DNA of 64,000 nucleotides, taken from contig JAFGXR010000103.1 in the NCBI GenBank assembly GCA_016936555.1, positions 17,931-81,930 of the forward strand. The letters are read 5' to 3'. Positions 4,723 to 53,230 of this stretch are shown in pieces. This DNA comes from Spirochaetales bacterium (GTDB lineage: Bacteria > Spirochaetota > Spirochaetia > DSM-2461). The position numbers and the translations under genes were made by a program. The notes beneath the pieces are model-generated. The model was not told the origin of the DNA, made no database searches, and saw only the letters and a list, made by a program, of their open reading frames with translations. Numbering within the stretch: the stretch's first letter is position 1; every line of letters starts with the position of its first letter.

Positions 4723-5529
4723 CTATGCCGCTGCAGGGGATTTGGACCACGTCCGGGCTTCATCGAGAAGTCCGGTTAATAAAAGTATGAAAATGTTTTT
4801 TCCTCTCAGAGAATCACAATAAGAAGTCCATTTCCGGTCATCGGAGAATTTTTCACGGTACCGATCCAGTTCCTCATCAGCGAGATCTGATTTGTGACCG
4901 ATGGAATCAAGAGAAAACAAAGTAAGCAGTCGCAAGACATAATCATTTTTGTTTTCCAGAATTTCATTCAGAACAGCTTCCGCCATTTCCCTGTTATTAT
5001 CTCTGATAAGGGAAAAAGCATAAGCCCATTTGACCCAGTCCCTTTCGGCCGTATTCTTCATATCCTTATATTCACCGTAATGCATGAGCGAAGCTGCACT
5101 GTCATCTCTCAGGAAAGGGGGAATACCGAGAAGAAGAGCGAATCTGGGAAGAAGGACCGGTTTTCTTTCGGAAATCTCTCTGGAAAGCCTTTCTATCTTA
5201 TCCAGATTTGAAACGGCCAGAGCCGTGTTGATCATCAGTCTGATATACTGTTTTCTGAATTGTCCCCGTTCGTATATTCTTTCTTCAAGATATTTTGTCA
5301 GGTTTGGCCAGTCTTCTCTTTCCAGATAGATGAAAAGATTCCAGTTTGCGACAAAATAACCGTCCAGTCCGGCGATGAGAAGAATAAAAATCAGCGCGAG
5401 ATACCAATTGTCTTTCCAGAATACAGCGGAATAGCTACCGCTCAGCAAAATCAAAGGAAGAAGAAAAATCAGCGCAAAAGATAAAATAACCACTATATTA
5501 AAGAGAAAAAATATAGATTTAAACTTCAT
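4723..5529 (-). CDS. Hypothetical membrane protein (two N-terminal TM helices, helical cytoplasmic domain)
   Basis: 268-aa ORF with two hydrophobic segments at the N-terminus; divergent from the HD-GYP gene. Confidence 0.75.
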   Translation of the reverse strand: MKFKSIFFLFNIVVILSFALIFLLPLILLSGSYSAVFWKDNWYLALIFILLIAGLDGYFVANWNLFIYLEREDWPNLTKYLEERIYERGQFRKQYIRLMINTALAVSNLDKIERLSREISERKPVLLPRFALLLGIPPFLRDDSAASLMHYGEYKDMKNTAERDWVKWAYAFSLIRDNNREMAEAVLNEILENKNDYVLRLLTLFSLDSIGHKSDLADEELDRYREKFSDDRKWTSYCDSLRGKNIFILLLTGLLDEARTWSKSPAAA

Positions 5530-5593
5530 TTATTGAGCTCCTCTATATATAATTAAGTACAGGGAAATAGAATTTTGTTTCAATGGAGTTTAA

Positions 5594-43503: not shown

Positions 43504-44138
43504 TGAAAGAGATAAGCCTTTACATTGACGGACGAATGGTTAAATGCCCCGAAGGATCGACGATTCTCGAAGCGGCCAGGCTAAAAGGAATAGAGATACC
43601 GACCATTTGTTTCCATGAGAGCCTCACCCCTCCCGGTTTGTGCCGCCAATGCGTTGTCGAAGTGGAAGGGGCAAGGGTTCTGCTTCCCTCATGCATAACC
43701 ATTGTCAGAGAGGGAATGGTCGTCACAACAGATTCCCCCCGGGTGCTGAGAGCCAGAAAAACCATACTCGAAATGCTTTCCGCCACGGCAGATCTCTCCG
43801 AAGCTCCGGAACTGGAACAGCAGATTAAGGCCTTCGGCGCCGATCCGCAGAGATTCAGGCCGGAAGAGGAAATAAAAACAGGACCGATTGTCGATAATCC
43901 CTTTTATGTCCGGGACTACGGCAAGTGCATTCTCTGCGGAAAATGCGTACAGGTCTGCTCCGAAGAGGTACAGCTCTCCTATGCCCTGACCGTAGCCGGC
44001 AGAGGCTTTGACAGCAGGATTTCCACTTTTTACGGCAAACCTCTCCCCGATACGAGCTGCGTCTTCTGCGGAAACTGTATTGAAGTCTGCCCGACCGGCG
44101 CCCTGAAACCGCGAAAGGAATTTGAAAATGACATATGA
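43500..44138 (+). CDS. Fe-S subunit (NuoG/FdhA N-terminal-like: 2Fe-2S plus 2x4Fe-4S)
   Basis: [38 protein letters not shown]. Confidence 0.9.
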
Positions 44139-46236
44139 CAGGAAAACAAGTACGACCTGCCCTTTCTGCGGGGTGGGCTGTCAGATCGATCTCAATATCA
44201 GAAACGGAGCCATAATCAGCGCCGCAGCGACTCCCGGGAAGGCTCCCAATTACGGAAGACTCTGCGTCAAGGGACGATTCGGAACCGATTACACCCATCA
44301 TCAAAGCAGGCTGACAAAACCGCTGATAAGAAAAGAACTCGACAGGGGGAAACGCACCACCTGCGGCATGGAAGGTTTCAGGGAGGCCACATGGGACGAA
44401 GCTCTGGATCTTGCGGCACAGAGAATATCCCGGACGGTACAGGAATCGGGAGGTTCGGCTTTCGGCACCTTCTGCTGCGCCAAGGCGACAAACGAAGACA
44501 ATTATCTGTTTCAGAAATTTGTCAGAGCCGTTCTTAAAACCAATAACATTGATCATTGCGCCAGGCTGTGTCACGCCGCTTCGGTCGCGGGTCTCCAAAA
44601 AGCATTGGGCTCGGCAGCCATGTCCAATTCCATAGCTGAAATGAAAGATCTGGATCTGTTCATAGTCACAGGATCCAATACGACGGAAACCCATCCGGTT
44701 ATCAGCACGTACCTGAAAGAGGCTGTTGTAAAAAACAAGGCGCGGCTTATAGTCATCGATCCGCGGAAAATTGAAATGGCCGATTTCGCATTACTTCACC
44801 TGCAACATAAACCGGGAACAGACGTGGCTGTCTATCAGGCCATGGCTCATGTCATAGTCAAAAACAAACTCTATGATAAAGATTTCATCGACCGGCGGAC
44901 CGAGGGCTTTGAAGACTACATGACGTCCCTCGAGGCCTTCACTCCCCAATGGGCTGAAGAAATCAGCGGGGTTCCGGCTGGTAAAATCGAAGAGGCGGCG
45001 AAACTTTACGCAGGAGCGGAAAGAGCGGCTTTTTACTGGGGCATGGGAATCAGCCAGAGCGTTCACGGGACCGACAACACCCTGTCCATTGCCAATCTGG
45101 CCTTAATGTGCGGCCACCTGGGAAAACCGGGAACCGGCGTCAATCCGCTGCGGGGGCAGAATAATGTGCAGGGATGCTCCGACTCGGGAGGTCTTCCCAA
45201 CATCTACCCCGGTTACCAGTCCGTTTCCGATGAAGAATCGGCGGTGAAATTTGAAAAAGCCTGGAAAACCTCACTGAACAGAGAACCGGGCCTGACGACC
45301 CTGGAAATGTCCGATGCCATAGGCGAAGGAATTATAAGCGACTTCATTATAATGGGCGAGAACCCCCTGATGAGCGAACCTGATCTCAATAAAGCCAGGA
45401 AGCATCTATCAGAGCTGAAGAATATGATCGTCATCGATATTTTTCTGAACGAGACGGGAGAATACGCCGACGTGATCCTACCCGCCGCGGCATTTTCCGA
45501 AAAAGAGGGAACTTTCACCAACAGCGACCGGAGGGTACAGCTGGTCAGAAAAGCCCTTGATCCGCCCGGAGAAGCCCGGGCCGATTGGGAGATTATCTGT
45601 GAGCTTGCCGGGAGAGTCGGTGATAAACTGGACCGGGATTACAAAGAGAGCTTCAGCTATGATTCGGCTTCGCAGATCTGGGACGAAATGGCATCTCTGG
45701 TTCCGGCTTTCGGCGGCATCAGCCATAAGCGGATAGAAGAGGAGGAGGGAATTCACTGGCCCTGTCCCGATTCTTCCCACAGCGGTACGCCCTATCTTTT
45801 CAGCGACACCTTTCCGAGAGGAAGGGGAAAATTCCACAGACTTGACCATACCGATCTCTCGGAGCGCCCCGACGGAGATTTCCCCTATATATTATCGACG
45901 GGACGGGTTCTCTATCACTGGCATGGAGGAACTATGACCAGGCGCTCTGTATTGAATGATATTTCTCCCGCTCCATTTGCAGAGATACATCCTGACGATG
46001 CTCTGAGGGAAAATCTTGCAGACAACAGCAGGGTCATCGTTTCCTCCCGAAGAGGATCGATCGAGCTCGATATCCGGATCAGCGACCGGTCTCCTGAAGG
46101 AGTTCTTTTCATACCGATCCACTTCGCCGAAGCGGCTGTCAACGAACTCACCCGGGACATCCGGGACGCTTCGGCCAAGATACCGGATTACAAAATCTGC
46201 GCTGTTAAAATAGAAAGAGCTTCTTCGGCGGACTGA
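44128..46236 (+). CDS. fdhF: Formate dehydrogenase catalytic subunit (Mo/W-bisPGD, Cys-type)
   Basis: [25 protein letters not shown] (Cys codon TGT at 44569), [25 protein letters not shown]. Confidence 0.92.
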
Positions 46237-48125
46237 ACCGGCTTCAGACAATAATTGTCACGGCAGAGCATGATCTCATCGGCCTCGCCATGGCCGGGTA
46301 TGCAGATAAGACCGGGCATGTAACCCGACTGGAGCGTTTTTCTCAAGGCATCTCTATCCGGACCGCTGATGGTAGCAATATAAGGTTTATCTATCATAGC
46401 GTTGATCAGTCTGTTCCAGTTGGCGAAATGAATGGTTCCCTTTTCTGCCCGGGACCGCAGAACCTTAGCCATGGCAGTGGCTCTGTCTGTATATTCCTGT
46501 CTGTGGAGTATCAAACCCATCCGATAGAGATTTTCCCCCATCTGCGAATTGGATGAGGGAATCACATTATCCAGTATTTCCTTTTTCCGGGCTATCAACG
46601 GCCTATCCCTGTCGGATTTGTAGAAAAAGAGCGGGGAGTCACTGTCATTAAAATGAGACAACACATAGTTTACCAGTTGTTCCGCCCTTTCCAACCACAG
46701 AGAATCGAAGATCAGCTCGTAGAGAGACAGAAAGGCCGCGGCGGTAAAAGCGTAGTCATCGAGAAAGCCGGGGATATAAGGCCTGCCGGAGCGGAGAGTC
46801 CTGTACAGCAGCCCCTCATCCATGAGGTTCTCAGCTATGAAAACCGCAGCTTTTAAGGCGGCATCGAGAAAGGGCTTATGATTAAAAGCTTTATAGGCAT
46901 CGGCATACCCCAGGATCATCAGGCCGTTCCACGATGCGAGAATTTTATTATCGAGAGCGGGTCTGATCCTTTTTTCCCGTTCTCCGAGAAGAATATTCTT
47001 TATATCCGCCAGATGACCGGGAACATCCTGTGCTGTATCGATATGAAGAATATTCCTGCCCTCCTCCCAGTTGCCCGAATCGGTTACGGAATAATATTTT
47101 TTTATTTCGGCACTCCGGTTCTCCAGAATCCTGTCCAGTTCTCCGGAAGTCCAGGTATAGTAGCGCCCCTCGACCCCTTCGCTGTCCGCATCGAGTGAGG
47201 AATAGAACGGACCTTCCGGCGAAGTCATTTCCCTGGCCAGAAAGGAAGCGGTTTCATATACAATATCTCTGTATTTCTTCCGTCCGGTTCTTCTGAAAGC
47301 ATTGCTGTAAAGGCTCATAAGCTGACCGTTGTCATAGAGCATTTTTTCAAAATGGGGAACTTTCCACTTTGAATCGATGGAATATCGCGCGAATCCCCCT
47401 CCGACCTGATCATAAATTCCCCCGTGGGCCATTTTATCCAATGTCAGGAAGACCTGATTCTCCCCCTCTTCATCACCGGACGAATAACTGTATTCAGCCA
47501 TGAACCGGAGAGATGAGGGCATGGGAAATTTCGGAGAGCCCAAACTCCCGCCCTCAAGAGCATCCTGAAGATGAATCATTTTCCTGAAGACCTTTTCGGT
47601 ATAATCCCCGGTGAACGCTTCCATGTTCACCGGCTCCTCATTCTGTATTGAAGACTGCAGGGCCAGGACAAGAGCTTCCGACTGCTCGCGGATTTTATCG
47701 CCTTTCTCCATCGCATATTGCAGAATCTGGTCGAGAAGGCTCATCCAGTTGTGCAAAGGGAAATAGGTTCCGCCGTAAATCGGTCTTCCATCGGGCAGGG
47801 CAATGATATTGAGGGGCCAACCTCCCGAACCGGTGAGCATCTGCACCGCTTCCATGTAGATCTGATCTATATCGGGCCTTTCCTCGCGATCGACTTTGAT
47901 GGAAATGAAATTTTCATTCATAAACCGGGCCGCTTCGGGGTTCTCAAAACATTCTCTTTCCATGACATGGCACCAGTGACAGGCCGCATATCCGATGCTG
48001 ATGATGAGAAGTTTGTTTTCTCCGGCTGCGGCATTTAAAGCCTCTTCGCCCCAGGGATACCAATCAACGGGATTGGCCGCATGCTGGAGAAGATAGGGGC
48101 TGGTTTCATTTTGCAGTCTGTTCAT
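46188..48125 (-). CDS. Thioredoxin-domain protein, YyaL/SSP411 (DUF255) family
   Basis: [42 protein letters not shown]. Confidence 0.93.
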
Positions 48126-48196
48126 AACTAATGTCCCGCTTATACGTTTATTCAATTTGTTATTACTAATATAGTGCGGCTAAGCTATTTATCTAA

Positions 48197-49628: not shown

Positions 49629-50015
49629 TTAAATTTCAATCTTTATTAATGTGTCACCCTGAACGGGAAGCGTCACTTCTCCCCAGTGAGACTCCCCGTC
49701 ATTCCATTCCAGTCTGATTCGATAACCTGCAATCACCTGCTTCAACGCGCTAAGCACAGGAGGAACGATTTTATCGGGATAAACCCTAATGAACTCGTTC
49801 TGCCAGCAGGAAATTGCCTTCTCTGCCAGAGGATCGTCAAGACTGATCGGCTGAAAAGAGCCGGGCACAGCCTTACCGGAAGTTTGAGTCACAGCACTCC
49901 CGGGCTTCCTATCGCCTTCATCCCTCGCGCCTCCTGAGAAGAGCGAGGTTGAAACGGACAGGAATATGATCAGAGCAATTACGGCACTCAGCTTTCGGGT
50001 GTAGATGGATCCCAT
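49629..50015 (-). CDS. Exported cystatin-like protein (putative cysteine-protease inhibitor)
   Basis: Signal peptide; PGSFQPISLDDP; QVIAG (QxVxG-like) at residues 93-97; AAAGAGGGG SD; overlaps the protease gene by 28 nt. Confidence 0.6.
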   Translation of the reverse strand: MGSIYTRKLSAVIALIIFLSVSTSLFSGGARDEGDRKPGSAVTQTSGKAVPGSFQPISLDDPLAEKAISCWQNEFIRVYPDKIVPPVLSALKQVIAGYRIRLEWNDGESHWGEVTLPVQGDTLIKIEI

Positions 50016-52267
50016 GCCGCCCCCTCTTTATATCCGACAATAGTCTGTGCGTGATCCGGTGAAGTCGGATACCAGACAGTCCCTGATCCGACGACGTCAT
50101 TTGTATCGAGATTATCATATGTTGTGTCGGTAAAGATGGCCGTGCTGACGATGTACCCCATATTAAGCAGCGCTTTGAGCATCTGGATATCACTGTCGTC
50201 CTCTATGATGAAATAGCAGTAATTATCGTCAGGCCAGTAGTAATTTCCCAGTTCCTCACCTCTGTACCGTGGCGCTTCCCGCCAGGCGGCTTCAGAAGGC
50301 CAGTATGTAAAATCCGATGACAATTCTTGATTCCTGTAAGGCATTGTGCTCCAGGTGGCACCGCCCTGCCGGATTATGGTTGATATGGCACTGCCGGGCC
50401 AGGCACCTTCATCGACACCGTTATTGATCTGATTATAGAGAAAATCGGGACTGAAGATTTTATTCAGATTCGATTGCGGACTGCCCGCATCAGAAACTCC
50501 GGTTATATCGGAACCCCAAGTGGTGGCCGACAGATCCCAGCCATGCTCTTTCGCCTCGGTGTAGGTCTGGATATAGTATCCGACGGAGAATGCCGCGCAG
50601 GAACCTTTCTGCCCCTGGTTCCCGACTGGGGGAAAGTAATCAGTCGCGGAATTGTCCACCGATAGAGGGAGAGTCGTCCCGTCGAAAGAAGCCCGCAGAT
50701 TATAGATTCCGGTCTCCACACTTTCCAATTTCACCATGCTATTCCATTCCTCCTCGGAGGGAGGGCGGTATCCTGTACCATGGCCTTTGTAGAGTTTATT
50801 ATAATCGACACCGGGTTTTGAAACTCCCAAGGCGATTTTGTCCCGAGCCAGTTCAGAGGATGCCGGCTGTGCCACAGAAAAACTTGATGAAGTTGTCGAT
50901 CTGAGAAGGGGGATTATCGCCTGCAGTTCCGTACGGGTCAACATCCCGATTGTATTAACCGTCGCATTTAATCCTGAACCGGCGGGAATCGATCCTGTAT
51001 CCGATGAACTCTGGGTTTTAAAAGCAGCTGCCGGGTCATTAGAATAGCTATTGTAAAACTCCACACTCAAATTATCGAGAGTACCTGTCGTTGATCCGGT
51101 ATTTTCAATCGAAACAAATAAATTATAATCATTGATAGCCGGAGCGAACTCCGTAATATCGAGAATCATTTTGTTGGCCGGGAATGCGATATCGCCGCCC
51201 ATGGGCGTTCCATCCCAGCCCCGGGATTCGAAGACCTTAGTCATAAGCGGATCGGATGGATCTCCCAGTCCGAAAGTAACTTTTATTTCATCCCTATGGG
51301 CATGTGTTATCCTGAAGCTGGCTATAATGGAAGGATCGTATTCTGCTGAAAAATCATTTTTATAGAAGAAAACCCCCAATTTATTGGCCTTCAGTACACT
51401 GTAGGGCATCCAGTAGCTGCCGTCGTCAACATTTTCCCAGCCTCCCACGCCCCAGGAGTTGACTATCTTCACGGCTCCCTCAGGAAGTACTTCATCATCG
51501 CTGACAATCAGCACGGCCGTATCTTCCGGCAGAGAAATATTGTTATTCTCGTTGAGTTCTGAAACAGCATCAGTGGCATCCATCACCACGCCGATATAAT
51601 ATGTTCCCGCGGGAACATCCGGTACAGTCAAACTGAAATCTGACGAATCTGAAACATATATCTCAGAAGATGCCCTACTGGAATAATTATAGATATAATC
51701 GTATAGAAGATAGTCTTCTGAAGGATCTATGACATTATCTCCTGACAAATAAAAATGAATATTCTGGGGTCCGGCATCGGTATCACCCAGATTATTCATA
51801 TAGGAGAAAATATTGAACTGATCTCCGGGGTTGACAATAAAGGAATCATTCCAGGATCCGAATCCTATATACAGCTGGTTTGTTGTCATCAGATCAGGCC
51901 GTCCTGATAATGCCCCGACTTCGCCGAGATCTCTCAGCCATGAATTATCGGAAATATCCCGAACCATCACGTGATTACCCAGGCTCAAGCTCACAGATTC
52001 GGAAGAACCGGAACATTCGGTCCAACTCACTCCTCCATCAAGCGAAAACTCCATATTAACTGTCGTATTGACTATCTGACTGTTCAAAATATCAAGATAT
52101 GTAGTTGTATTTATCCCGATATCAGGTGTTGATGTAAAATCTCCATCCACCGGAGGGGTATCATCAGTCGTACTCCCCGGATCTTTTCCGACGGGATTTT
52201 CACAGGAGAAAAAAAACATTCCCCCCACAAGGATCAATAAGATATTAAGCAAAGATCGGATTTTCAT
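49988..52267 (-). CDS. Lipoprotein C1 (papain-like) peptidase with CARDB domain; catalytic domain apparently circularly permuted
   Basis: Lipobox FFFSC22; CARDB-like DAVSELNENNN; VKIVNSWG (N270); PPVGNQGQKGSC (Q551/C557); DHAQTIVGY (H739). Confidence 0.85.
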   Translation of the reverse strand: MKIRSLLNILLILVGGMFFFSCENPVGKDPGSTTDDTPPVDGDFTSTPDIGINTTTYLDILNSQIVNTTVNMEFSLDGGVSWTECSGSSESVSLSLGNHVMVRDISDNSWLRDLGEVGALSGRPDLMTTNQLYIGFGSWNDSFIVNPGDQFNIFSYMNNLGDTDAGPQNIHFYLSGDNVIDPSEDYLLYDYIYNYSSRASSEIYVSDSSDFSLTVPDVPAGTYYIGVVMDATDAVSELNENNNISLPEDTAVLIVSDDEVLPEGAVKIVNSWGVGGWENVDDGSYWMPYSVLKANKLGVFFYKNDFSAEYDPSIIASFRITHAHRDEIKVTFGLGDPSDPLMTKVFESRGWDGTPMGGDIAFPANKMILDITEFAPAINDYNLFVSIENTGSTTGTLDNLSVEFYNSYSNDPAAAFKTQSSSDTGSIPAGSGLNATVNTIGMLTRTELQAIIPLLRSTTSSSFSVAQPASSELARDKIALGVSKPGVDYNKLYKGHGTGYRPPSEEEWNSMVKLESVETGIYNLRASFDGTTLPLSVDNSATDYFPPVGNQGQKGSCAAFSVGYYIQTYTEAKEHGWDLSATTWGSDITGVSDAGSPQSNLNKIFSPDFLYNQINNGVDEGAWPGSAISTIIRQGGATWSTMPYRNQELSSDFTYWPSEAAWREAPRYRGEELGNYYWPDDNYCYFIIEDDSDIQMLKALLNMGYIVSTAIFTDTTYDNLDTNDVVGSGTVWYPTSPDHAQTIVGYKEGAAWDPSTPES

Positions 52268-52477
52268 TTCTACTCCTGAAAGGATTGATTTAACCTGAAA
52301 ATTTCATTTTTTTGAAATACAAGAACATATTTTTATCATAAAAAAATATGACAGTAAATGAATTCTCAATTATGAAACTCATATATTACCCATAATACCT
52401 CATTAACATCTCTTCATCCCGCTAACGAATGAAAATAATGTCCGGAAACCTTAATTTTCAGGCTTCCGGAATCATCA

Positions 52478-53230
52478 TCAACGACAGAAAACCCTTATGG
52501 CATCGCGGAAAAAAACAGCCAGCCCTTCGCCGTACTTATCGAAATTCTTCGCAAAACGGTTATCATCGACGTACATCTCGCCGAGGCCCGCCAGCATTTC
52601 ATCACTGGTTTCGTAGAACCATTTGTTCAGGTGCTCTTTCCAGCGGCGGACCTGATCCTGCACCTCAGAGTCATCGGCTTCCCTGTCCATCAGCGATGCC
52701 AAATTTCTGTAGATATCCTCCGACTCCGCTTTTATAGCCGCCCACTCTTTTTCCTTGTAGTTTTTTGTTCGTCTTGCGCTTTCTCTGTACGCGTCGCTGC
52801 CGCCCCATTTTTCCCTGGCTTCATCGGCGTATTTTCTCCTGTGCTCTTCCACTTCCTTCGTGTCAAATGCATCGAACATTTTATTCTTATCCATTTCAAG
52901 ACCCTCCTTTTCACTGGCGATAGTTACATCTATCGCCTCAATTATCCTTTCGAGACGTTTTCTCTTTACGAGAAGAAGTTCGCGCTGTCTGCAGAGTGCG
53001 TCAACTCCGCCGGAACCGGGGCTGGAAACCATTTTCTTTATAGCATCCAGAGGGAACTCCAGTTCCCGGAGAAACAGGATCTGCTGCAGCCGGGCGAGAT
53101 TGCCATCGCCGTAGAGTCTGTATCCGTTTTCCCCGATCTGCTGTGGAACAAGCAGTCCGATCCGGTCGTAATGGTGGAGAGTCCGTACGCTGATCCCCGC
53201 CAGTTCGGCCATTTCTTTCACTTTGTACAT
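52478..53230 (-). CDS. MerR family regulator with TipAS antibiotic-recognition domain
   Basis: SVRTLHHYDRIGLL; EARE(K)WG; GLGEMYVDDNRF. Confidence 0.93.
   Translation of the reverse strand: MYKVKEMAELAGISVRTLHHYDRIGLLVPQQIGENGYRLYGDGNLARLQQILFLRELEFPLDAIKKMVSSPGSGGVDALCRQRELLLVKRKRLERIIEAIDVTIASEKEGLEMDKNKMFDAFDTKEVEEHRRKYADEAREKWGGSDAYRESARRTKNYKEKEWAAIKAESEDIYRNLASLMDREADDSEVQDQVRRWKEHLNKWFYETSDEMLAGLGEMYVDDNRFAKNFDKYGEGLAVFFRDAIRVFCR

Follow-up and report, generated by a model that had tools for sequence, protein, structure and literature searches.

A divergent cystatin-like protein as the probable partner of a circularly permuted papain-type protease in a Spirochaetales bacterium

The subject of this analysis is a pair of overlapping genes on the minus strand of a 64,000-nucleotide stretch of Spirochaetales DNA (the window; contig JAFGXR010000103.1 of assembly GCA_016936555.1). 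The downstream gene encodes a small protein of 128 amino acids with an export signal, and its start lies inside the 3' end of the upstream gene, which encodes a lipoprotein whose peptidase domain is C1-like (papain-type) and circularly permuted. The small protein is almost certainly a member of the cystatin superfamily, and a very divergent one. It is likely to be the cognate inhibitor of the permuted protease next to it. On balance, we also lean towards a wider reading, namely that this is the first bacterial cystatin to serve as a dedicated, translationally coupled inhibitor of the cell's own papain-type protease, and that its gene occupies a modular slot which can hold either a cystatin or a chagasin. 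Under this wider reading a classical N-terminal propeptide could not do the job of the inhibitor, because the fold of the enzyme is circularly permuted. The inhibitor family and the logic of the operon are known; what is new is their combination, the divergent clade, the permuted partner and the exchange of cystatin for chagasin.

Homology and predicted fold of the small protein

Taken alone, the window protein is hardly recognisable. Single-sequence searches gave no match in Pfam (E up to 1), in NCBIfam or, with phmmer, in the PDB, and a word-indexed homologue search returned only the protein itself. Its first relatives were reached via the neighbours of the protease homologues. In the first four loci looked up, small genes of 124-136 amino acids follow the protease gene, and where DNA was available their products share the series GG[FY]..., a helix, RQVVAG or RQTVAG, and FPLD or YPLG. 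When a profile of four members of this clade was compared with the PDB, 39 sequences matched, and 38 of them belong to the cystatin superfamily (cystatins, stefins, fetuins and cystatin-derived scaffolds; best E=1.4e-5). A profile of seven members retrieved further members of the clade, two of them labelled Spirochaetales, and then proteins annotated with PF00031 at E=5e-8 to 1e-4. In hhalign the clade aligned with six PF00031-annotated bacterial proteins over 80 columns, i.e. the whole domain, with a probability of 98.1% and E=7.8e-14. Three of the four close relatives match PF00031 by themselves, if weakly (E=0.006), and in an exhaustive search of 1.84 billion proteins the window protein alone matched a multi-cystatin protein at E=2e-6. 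One further match of the exhaustive search, P0021, is a repeat protein without cystatin motifs and was set aside as unrelated. Membership of the window protein in the chagasin family was looked for as well; there was no Pfam I42 match and none of the motifs NPTTG, GxGG or RPW.

The AlphaFold2 model consists of b1 (residues 55-57), a helix (62-78), b2 (87-94), b3 (98-105), b4 (109-116) and b5 (125-127). The predicted local distance difference test (pLDDT), averaged over blocks of ten residues, is 86-97 for residues 51-120 and 70 for residues 121-128; over most of the domain it exceeds 90. With the loop L1 (QVIAG) between b2 and b3 and the loop L2 (LPVQG) between b4 and b5, the order of the elements is that of the cystatin topology, in which an antiparallel sheet of five strands is wrapped around a single helix. 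Foldseek against the PDB returned only cystatins, stefins, fetuins or monellins at ranks 1-45, with probabilities up to 1.00 and target-normalised template modelling scores up to 0.60. The E values of these matches are modest (0.025 or higher), likely because the signal peptide and a disordered linker are part of the model. The initial annotation, a reading of the DNA letters, had made a cystatin-like fold, to be checked with Foldseek, one of the conditions of its proposal beforehand, and both the topology and the Foldseek matches bear this fold out. The input alignment of AlphaFold2 included classical cystatins, and the model thus depends in part on the sequence evidence; the sequence profiles confirm the homology independently.

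The motifs on which the cystatin proposal had been built were found residue by residue where they had been placed, with PGSFQPISLDDP at residues 51-62, QVIAG at 93-97 and LPVQG at 116-120, and the helix that had been expected after PGSFQPISLDDP is the one in the AlphaFold2 model. An alignment of the clade with classical cystatins shows no variation at Gln93 and Gly97 and at least 90% conservation at Val95 and Ala96. Leu116-Pro117 sits in the b4-b5 loop, and in the nearest subclade this proline is kept as [FY]PL. The protein has one cysteine, no disulfide pattern and a short b3-b4 connection. Judged by these traits the window inhibitor is of a stefin-like build, yet it carries a predicted export signal. 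The linker in front of the domain differs in length and sequence among the homologues.

Conservation of the gene pair

The linkage of the two genes was examined with the profile of the clade, which was run against all stop-to-stop open reading frames (ORFs) on both strands of the fetched loci and of the window. A cystatin-like ORF was found directly 3' of the protease gene, on the same strand, in the window and in L002, L003, L004, L005, L007, L008, L009, L010, L012, L014, L018, L021, L022, L025 and L036. Weaker cystatin-like matches follow the protease gene in L015, where the ORF is cut by the contig end, and in L033, where the loop motif reads KTVAG. The profile had no match elsewhere in the fetched loci or in the window. 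This amounts to about 16 independent loci with the pair, mostly from metagenome-assembled genomes of Spirochaetes. The flanking genes differ from locus to locus and the pair alone is conserved. Every homologue of the clade with a readable context adjoins an orthologous permuted C1-like protease, on the 3' side of the latter. The distance matrices of protease and cystatin are correlated (Mantel r=0.57, p=2e-4, 16 pairs), and the small protein is the faster-evolving of the two (mean identity 29% vs 48% for the protease). The linkage to C1-type genes, for which the initial annotation had suggested a co-occurrence survey across genomes, therefore holds in about 16 loci with unrelated flanks, and the two-gene module that it had postulated is borne out by the conserved adjacency together with an overlap of 28 nt that is shared by at least seven loci, the window included.

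This overlap has the same construction wherever it occurs. In the window, the ATG of the inhibitor gene is formed by the protease codons GCA-TGG (gcATGg), which encode Ala751-Trp752, and the Shine-Dalgarno-like sequence AAAGAGGGGG lies five nucleotides upstream of it, likewise within protease codons. An AAGGAGG is present at the equivalent site in L002, L003, L004, L009, L010 and L012, where it is again formed by the codons for K-E-G. In these six loci and in the window, an ATG or GTG start in the context of an invariant Trp codon is combined with the ribosome-binding site, giving the same 28-nt overlap each time. In the other loci the inhibitor gene begins separately, between a few and 150 nt further downstream. 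A check of residues and coordinates also agreed with the description from which the analysis had started, an exported 128-residue ORF with its own Shine-Dalgarno sequence that begins within the last 28 nt of the protease gene, and assigned it to the minus strand. The same sequence was called as a gene on two contigs, and the second of these, from a public metagenome run, contains the identical gene pair. The window sequence itself was recovered in metagenomes of freshwater and sediment and not in host material.

No terminator-like site was seen between the two overlapping genes. A terminator-like hairpin is located directly upstream of the protease gene, and thus the pair probably starts its own transcript. 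Given the position of the ribosome-binding site and of the start codon, protease and inhibitor are probably translationally coupled.

At the junction the DNA is under a dual coding constraint (window 50013-50029, minus strand, and the equivalent sites in L002, L003, L004, L009, L010 and L012): the conserved K-E-G...W of the protease is at the same time ribosome-binding site and start codon (xxA-TGG). Since the start codon is embedded in the context of the protease Trp codon, the inhibitors of the subclade with overlapping starts begin with MG (VG in L012).

The mode of export seems to differ along with the mode of translation initiation. The hydrophobic stretch of the window protein has a mean Kyte-Doolittle value of about 2, and AlphaFold2 predicts a helix at residues 6-25. 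Many inhibitors of the clade carry a lipobox cysteine (...SGCAS, ...FGCAT, ...AGCVN). The members with overlapping starts (the window, L002, L003, L004, L009, L010 and L012) have none (...LFSFGK, ...LFSGGA) and keep the signal-like helix, whereas those with separate starts mostly retain the cysteine. This suggests that the subclade with overlapping starts changed from a lipid-anchored to a soluble or signal-anchored inhibitor. For the window inhibitor, which is without the lipobox cysteine, either cleavage by signal peptidase I or retention of the signal as an anchor is predicted. Protease and inhibitor are both predicted to act outside the cytoplasm.

The copy in L008 (4486-4929, plus strand) is a clear member of the clade, with QVVEG and a lipobox (...LICLCSC), in a frame without any ATG, GTG or TTG start that would give at least 40 amino acids. 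It was missed by the gene callers because there is no canonical start codon; an unusual start codon or a sequencing error may be the reason. In L035 (4782-5138, plus strand) only the signal peptide and the first 20 or so mature residues (...TTGSFKSISTDSREAA) are in frame, and this copy looks like a frameshifted or decaying one. The genome with L035 also has a second protease locus, L019, without an inhibitor.

One locus holds a different protein in the position of the cystatin. In L030, from a metagenome-assembled genome of the Spirochaetales, the orthologous protease (48% identical) is followed after 7 nt by a gene for a lipoprotein of 145 amino acids (5099-5533, plus strand). This lipoprotein is not a cystatin: it matches Pfam Inhibitor_I42, i.e. 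chagasin, at E=6e-19 and has the loops NPSTGYTW, GSGG and RRW. A search of the loci for chagasin motifs found such an inhibitor in L030 only. The fold of chagasins is unrelated to that of cystatins, and they are not known to have any role but the inhibition of C1 peptidases. The presence of two unrelated families of C1 inhibitors in one gene slot can hardly be accounted for unless this position codes for an inhibitor of the upstream enzyme.

The coupling to a protease was not seen with other bacterial cystatins. The classical, Pfam-recognised ones that were examined (two that were looked up and those at 39 loci from a metagenome scan) are stand-alone genes. Neither the permuted protease nor canonical C1 motifs were found near the 39 loci of the scan, which was made with a narrower alignment and yielded no new members of the clade. 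Hence the coupling to the protease is specific to the clade of the window protein. Among the stand-alone cystatins, L104 (528-1552) and L133 (1-1853) each contain two classical cystatin ORFs in tandem on the same strand, an arrangement that points to local duplication. Small ORFs were also noted downstream of more distant relatives of the protease; these look spurious.

The permuted partner protease

The partner was initially annotated as a permuted protease, and its motifs support this. Pfam recognises a CARDB domain (E=6e-8) and gives a match to Peptidase_C1 at residues 533-580 which remains below the threshold (14.6 bits vs 20.7). The profile of the protease family, compared with the PDB, matched only C1A peptidases and CARDB domains (procerain B at 5e-4, cathepsin K at 7e-4). 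Its positions 518-547 align with residues 1-30 of mature cathepsin K and its positions 675-735 with the His region, whereas positions 252-285 correspond to the C-terminal part (residues 251-280) of 3ois_A, a C1 protease. Across 11 aligned relatives, the motifs GA.K.VNSWG...DG.YW (Asn270-Ser-Trp), NQG..GSC (Gln551, Cys557) and HAQT.VG (His739) are invariant. The catalytic residues thus follow each other in the order Asn270, Gln551, Cys557, His739 and not in the order Gln-Cys-His-Asn of canonical C1 peptidases. Since the C-terminal strands of papain, which bear the Asn, are encoded first, the domain is circularly permuted, and a beta-rich insert separates its two pieces. By these motifs the enzyme is classed as C1-like, not as a canonical member of C1. 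Foldseek with the full-length model found only CARDB and other beta-sandwich matches and was uninformative on the catalytic domain, for which the permutation and the inserted domain are the probable reasons. An I29 propeptide was not recognisable at the N-terminus by Pfam.

About ten full-length relatives of the protease have identities of 41-50%, and a scan of species-representative genomes retrieved 365 relatives. Spirochaetes and Riflebacteria have full-length forms, and the permuted catalytic core is also found in Bacteroidota, Fibrobacterota, Planctomycetota, many archaea (Thermoplasmata, Bathyarchaeia) and others. Apparently, these circularly permuted C1-like peptidases form a large family that has not been described before. 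Other permutations are treated in a recent classification of papain-like enzymes, which describes none of such a kind for C1 (PMC10318531). In the literature, of which our coverage is incomplete, no report of an operon of a bacterial cystatin with a C1-like protease or of a permuted C1 peptidase was found, which is absence of evidence only. The features of the locus are compiled in Table 1.

Table 1. Positions of the gene pair and of its features in the window
Feature	Position	Strand	Remarks
Cystatin-like gene	49629-50015	-	from the ORF list; ATG start, 128 codons; TAA stop at 49629-49631
Export signal, residues 1-29	49929-50015	-	Arg7 and Lys8, hydrophobic stretch 9-26, ...SLFSGG
Low-complexity linker, residues 30-50	49866-49928	-	predicted disordered; pLDDT below 50 at residues 38-45, about 50 for the ten-residue blocks of 31-50
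Cystatin-fold domain, residues 51-128	49632-49865	-	AlphaFold2, Foldseek, hhalign
Gly52	49860-49862	-	equivalent of the N-terminal Gly of cystatins and stefins; invariant in alignments A1, A2 and A3; aligns with GG of classical cystatins
QVIAG, residues 93-97	49725-49739	-	first hairpin loop L1, between b2 and b3
LPVQG, residues 116-120	49656-49670	-	second hairpin loop L2, between b4 and b5; stefin-type Pro, no Trp
Overlap of the two genes	49988-50015	-	28 nt; TGA stop of the protease at 49988-49990
Shine-Dalgarno-like AAAGAGGGGG	50020-50029	-	5 nt upstream of the inhibitor ATG, within protease codons Lys747-Glu-Gly
Terminator-like hairpin	52441-52470	-	after the MerR/TipAS regulator gene (52478-53230, -), directly upstream of the protease gene
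Partner gene, 759-residue lipoprotein	49988-52267	-	beta-sandwich, CARDB domain, circularly permuted C1-like (papain-type) peptidase domain
Cys22	52202-52204	-	lipobox Cys in ...FFFSC; at least 90% conserved in alignment A4
Asn270-Ser-Trp272	51452-51460	-	corresponds to the papain segment Asn175-Ser-Trp177, N-terminal of the catalytic Cys; invariant
Gln551...Cys557 (NQGQKGSCAAFS)	50597-50617	-	oxyanion-hole Gln and catalytic Cys; invariant; aligns with the N-terminus of mature cathepsins K and L
His739 (DHAQTIVGY)	50051-50053	-	catalytic His, 20 residues before the C-terminus; invariant; aligns with the His159 region of cathepsin K and procerain B

Proposed function and alternatives

The most likely course of events is the following. 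Ribosomes that finish the protease would restart on the inhibitor, whose ribosome-binding site and start lie inside the protease gene, and both proteins would be made in roughly equal amounts. Both would be exported and located outside the cytoplasm, the protease as a membrane-anchored lipoprotein. There a three-part wedge of the inhibitor domain (residues 51-128), made up of the segment around Gly52 and the two hairpins that bear QVIAG and LPVQG, would fill the cleft at Cys557/His739. The protease would then be kept latent or limited and the cell's own envelope spared until enzyme and inhibitor separate or the inhibitor is lost. In this scheme we infer the binding, the inhibition, the 1:1 stoichiometry, the mechanism of release and the physiological purpose.

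Several findings weigh against the assignment of the small protein as an inhibitor of its neighbour. As a single sequence it stays below the gathering threshold of Pfam for PF00031. It is the most divergent member of the clade (19-30% identical to the others), with GS in place of GG after Pro51 and QVIAG in place of QVVAG; its loop L2 is without the Trp of type-2 cystatins, and in other members of the clade the Pro of this loop is shifted or absent. No inhibitor gene was detectable within 3 kb of full-length orthologous proteases in seven Riflebacteria loci and several Spirochaete loci, and thus the partner is optional for the enzyme. The RNA evidence for the pair is a single contig of 172 nt from a sediment metatranscriptome of the same study, which matches window positions 50251-50422 exactly; it lies wholly inside the protease gene, leaves the inhibitor ORF uncovered and is a weak sign of transcription in situ. 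Finally, protease residues of about 460-530 (about 50678-50888, minus strand) align weakly with the pro-region of procerain B just before the mature N-terminus. The permuted chain may therefore contain an internal propeptide-like segment, which would lessen the need for a separate inhibitor.

Some of these points could also be read in favour of a partner that has the cystatin fold and does not inhibit. Such a partner might assist folding as a chaperone, a role that the initial annotation had also allowed, act in trans as a propeptide, or be required as adaptor or anchor if the permuted protease is to mature or to reach its place. Non-inhibitory uses of the cystatin fold exist (monellin, fetuin and CRES are among the Foldseek matches), the window copy departs from the consensus in the manner just described, and the permuted enzyme has no N-terminal I29 propeptide that Pfam would recognise. 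Yet the residues of the wedge, Gly52, Gln93 and Gly97, are the only invariant positions besides those of the core, and since chagasins are known only as inhibitors, the replacement by one of them speaks for selection on inhibition. The full-length orthologues of Riflebacteria, which are without a partner, make an obligatory chaperone unlikely. We therefore consider a non-inhibitory partner unlikely, and a chaperone in particular less likely than an inhibitor. That the ORF could be a chance one or a decaying remnant with a fortuitous QxVxG is scarcely credible. Such an origin would agree with the failure of the single sequence to match Pfam, NCBIfam, the PDB or, in the word-indexed search, anything but itself, and with the seemingly broken copy in the related locus L035. 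It is refuted by the comparative data: homologues with intact frames are present in about 16 loci, the profile E values go down to 1e-14, the fold is predicted with confidence, and ribosome-binding site and start codon are conserved.

Cystatins are textbook inhibitors of eukaryotic papain-type proteases. With the stefins and cystatins (MEROPS I25, PF00031) the window protein shares the order of the elements, the N-terminal Gly and a QxVxG in the first hairpin, and with the stefins also the lack of disulfides and the short b3-b4 connection; its second hairpin contains a Pro, which the clade as a whole does not conserve. It differs from both in being bacterial, in its domain of only about 78 residues, in the missing Trp of loop 2, in scoring below the Pfam threshold when alone, and in the position of its gene in an overlapping operon with the presumed target. 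The export signal and the disordered linker set it apart from the stefins.

Bacterial cystatins and stefins, including stefins in Spirochaetes, were catalogued by Kordis and Turk (2009; PMC2784779), and the few that were known were read as horizontally acquired. The clade of the window resembles these proteins in the conserved G and QxVxG and in its patchy distribution, and its profile scores 1e-9 to 1e-26 against such proteins. In contrast to the window clade, which is tied to an endogenous C1-like protease, those that were examined stand alone, and host proteases were proposed as their targets, while a role as regulators of bacterial enzymes was thought to be unlikely (PMC2784779). The window protein could, by analogy, be a genuine cystatin inhibitor aimed at papain-type proteases of other organisms (hosts, grazing protists or competitors), with the adjacency of the two genes reflecting the shared regulation of secreted factors. 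Its predicted export would agree with this, as would the stand-alone position of the classical bacterial cystatins, with no C1 protease nearby. However, within the clade the gene always adjoins a member of this one protease family on its 3' side, and its start codon often lies inside the protease gene; the two genes co-diverge, an unrelated family of C1 inhibitors fills the slot at one orthologous locus, and the organism comes from freshwater and sediment samples. A foreign target is thus distinctly unlikely, and the neighbouring protease is the target that we prefer.

Inhibitor genes which adjoin the gene of a cysteine protease and are co-transcribed with it are known from staphopain and staphostatin (C47/I57), SpeB and Spi (C10/I69) and Bfp and Bfi of Bacteroides (PMC2873492). 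As in the window, the inhibitor gene of these operons adjoins the protease gene in the same orientation, and self-protection has been proposed; the Bacteroides pair also resembles the window pair in having export or lipoprotein signals on both partners (PMC2873492). The inhibitors of these systems are lipocalin-like barrels or propeptide mimics, not cystatins, the proteases belong to C47 and C10 and are not C1-like, and for the window pair both inhibition and co-transcription are putative. Staphostatins are cytoplasmic, unlike the window inhibitor, which is predicted to be exported. Chagasin (ICP; MEROPS I42, PF09394), which occupies the equivalent slot in L030, inhibits the same class of enzymes by loops inserted into the cleft and differs from the window protein by its immunoglobulin-like fold, which is unrelated to that of cystatins.

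Whatever its exact function, the locus ties a divergent clade of bacterial cystatins, which is missed by current domain models, to a C1-like lipoprotein protease that free-living Spirochaetes themselves encode. If the small protein is the inhibitor of its neighbour, bacterial cystatins would be more than weapons borrowed against hosts, and the permuted C1-like proteases, a widespread family not described so far, would gain a ready-made specific inhibitor. The pair can be tested directly as enzyme and inhibitor. It offers a functional handle on a large, unannotated permuted papain-like family, whose 365 relatives include archaeal ones, and, as a natural example of the replacement of one inhibitor by another in the same slot, it should be useful for annotating other small genes that lie beside proteases.

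Apart from this locus, the window contains a convergent overlap of two further ORFs. The 3' ends of an ORF of 704 amino acids (44122-46236, plus strand) and one of 655 amino acids (46188-48155, minus strand) overlap by 49 nt (46188-46236); by the appearance of their sequences they look like a protein of the molybdopterin-oxidoreductase type and a thioredoxin-domain protein, respectively.

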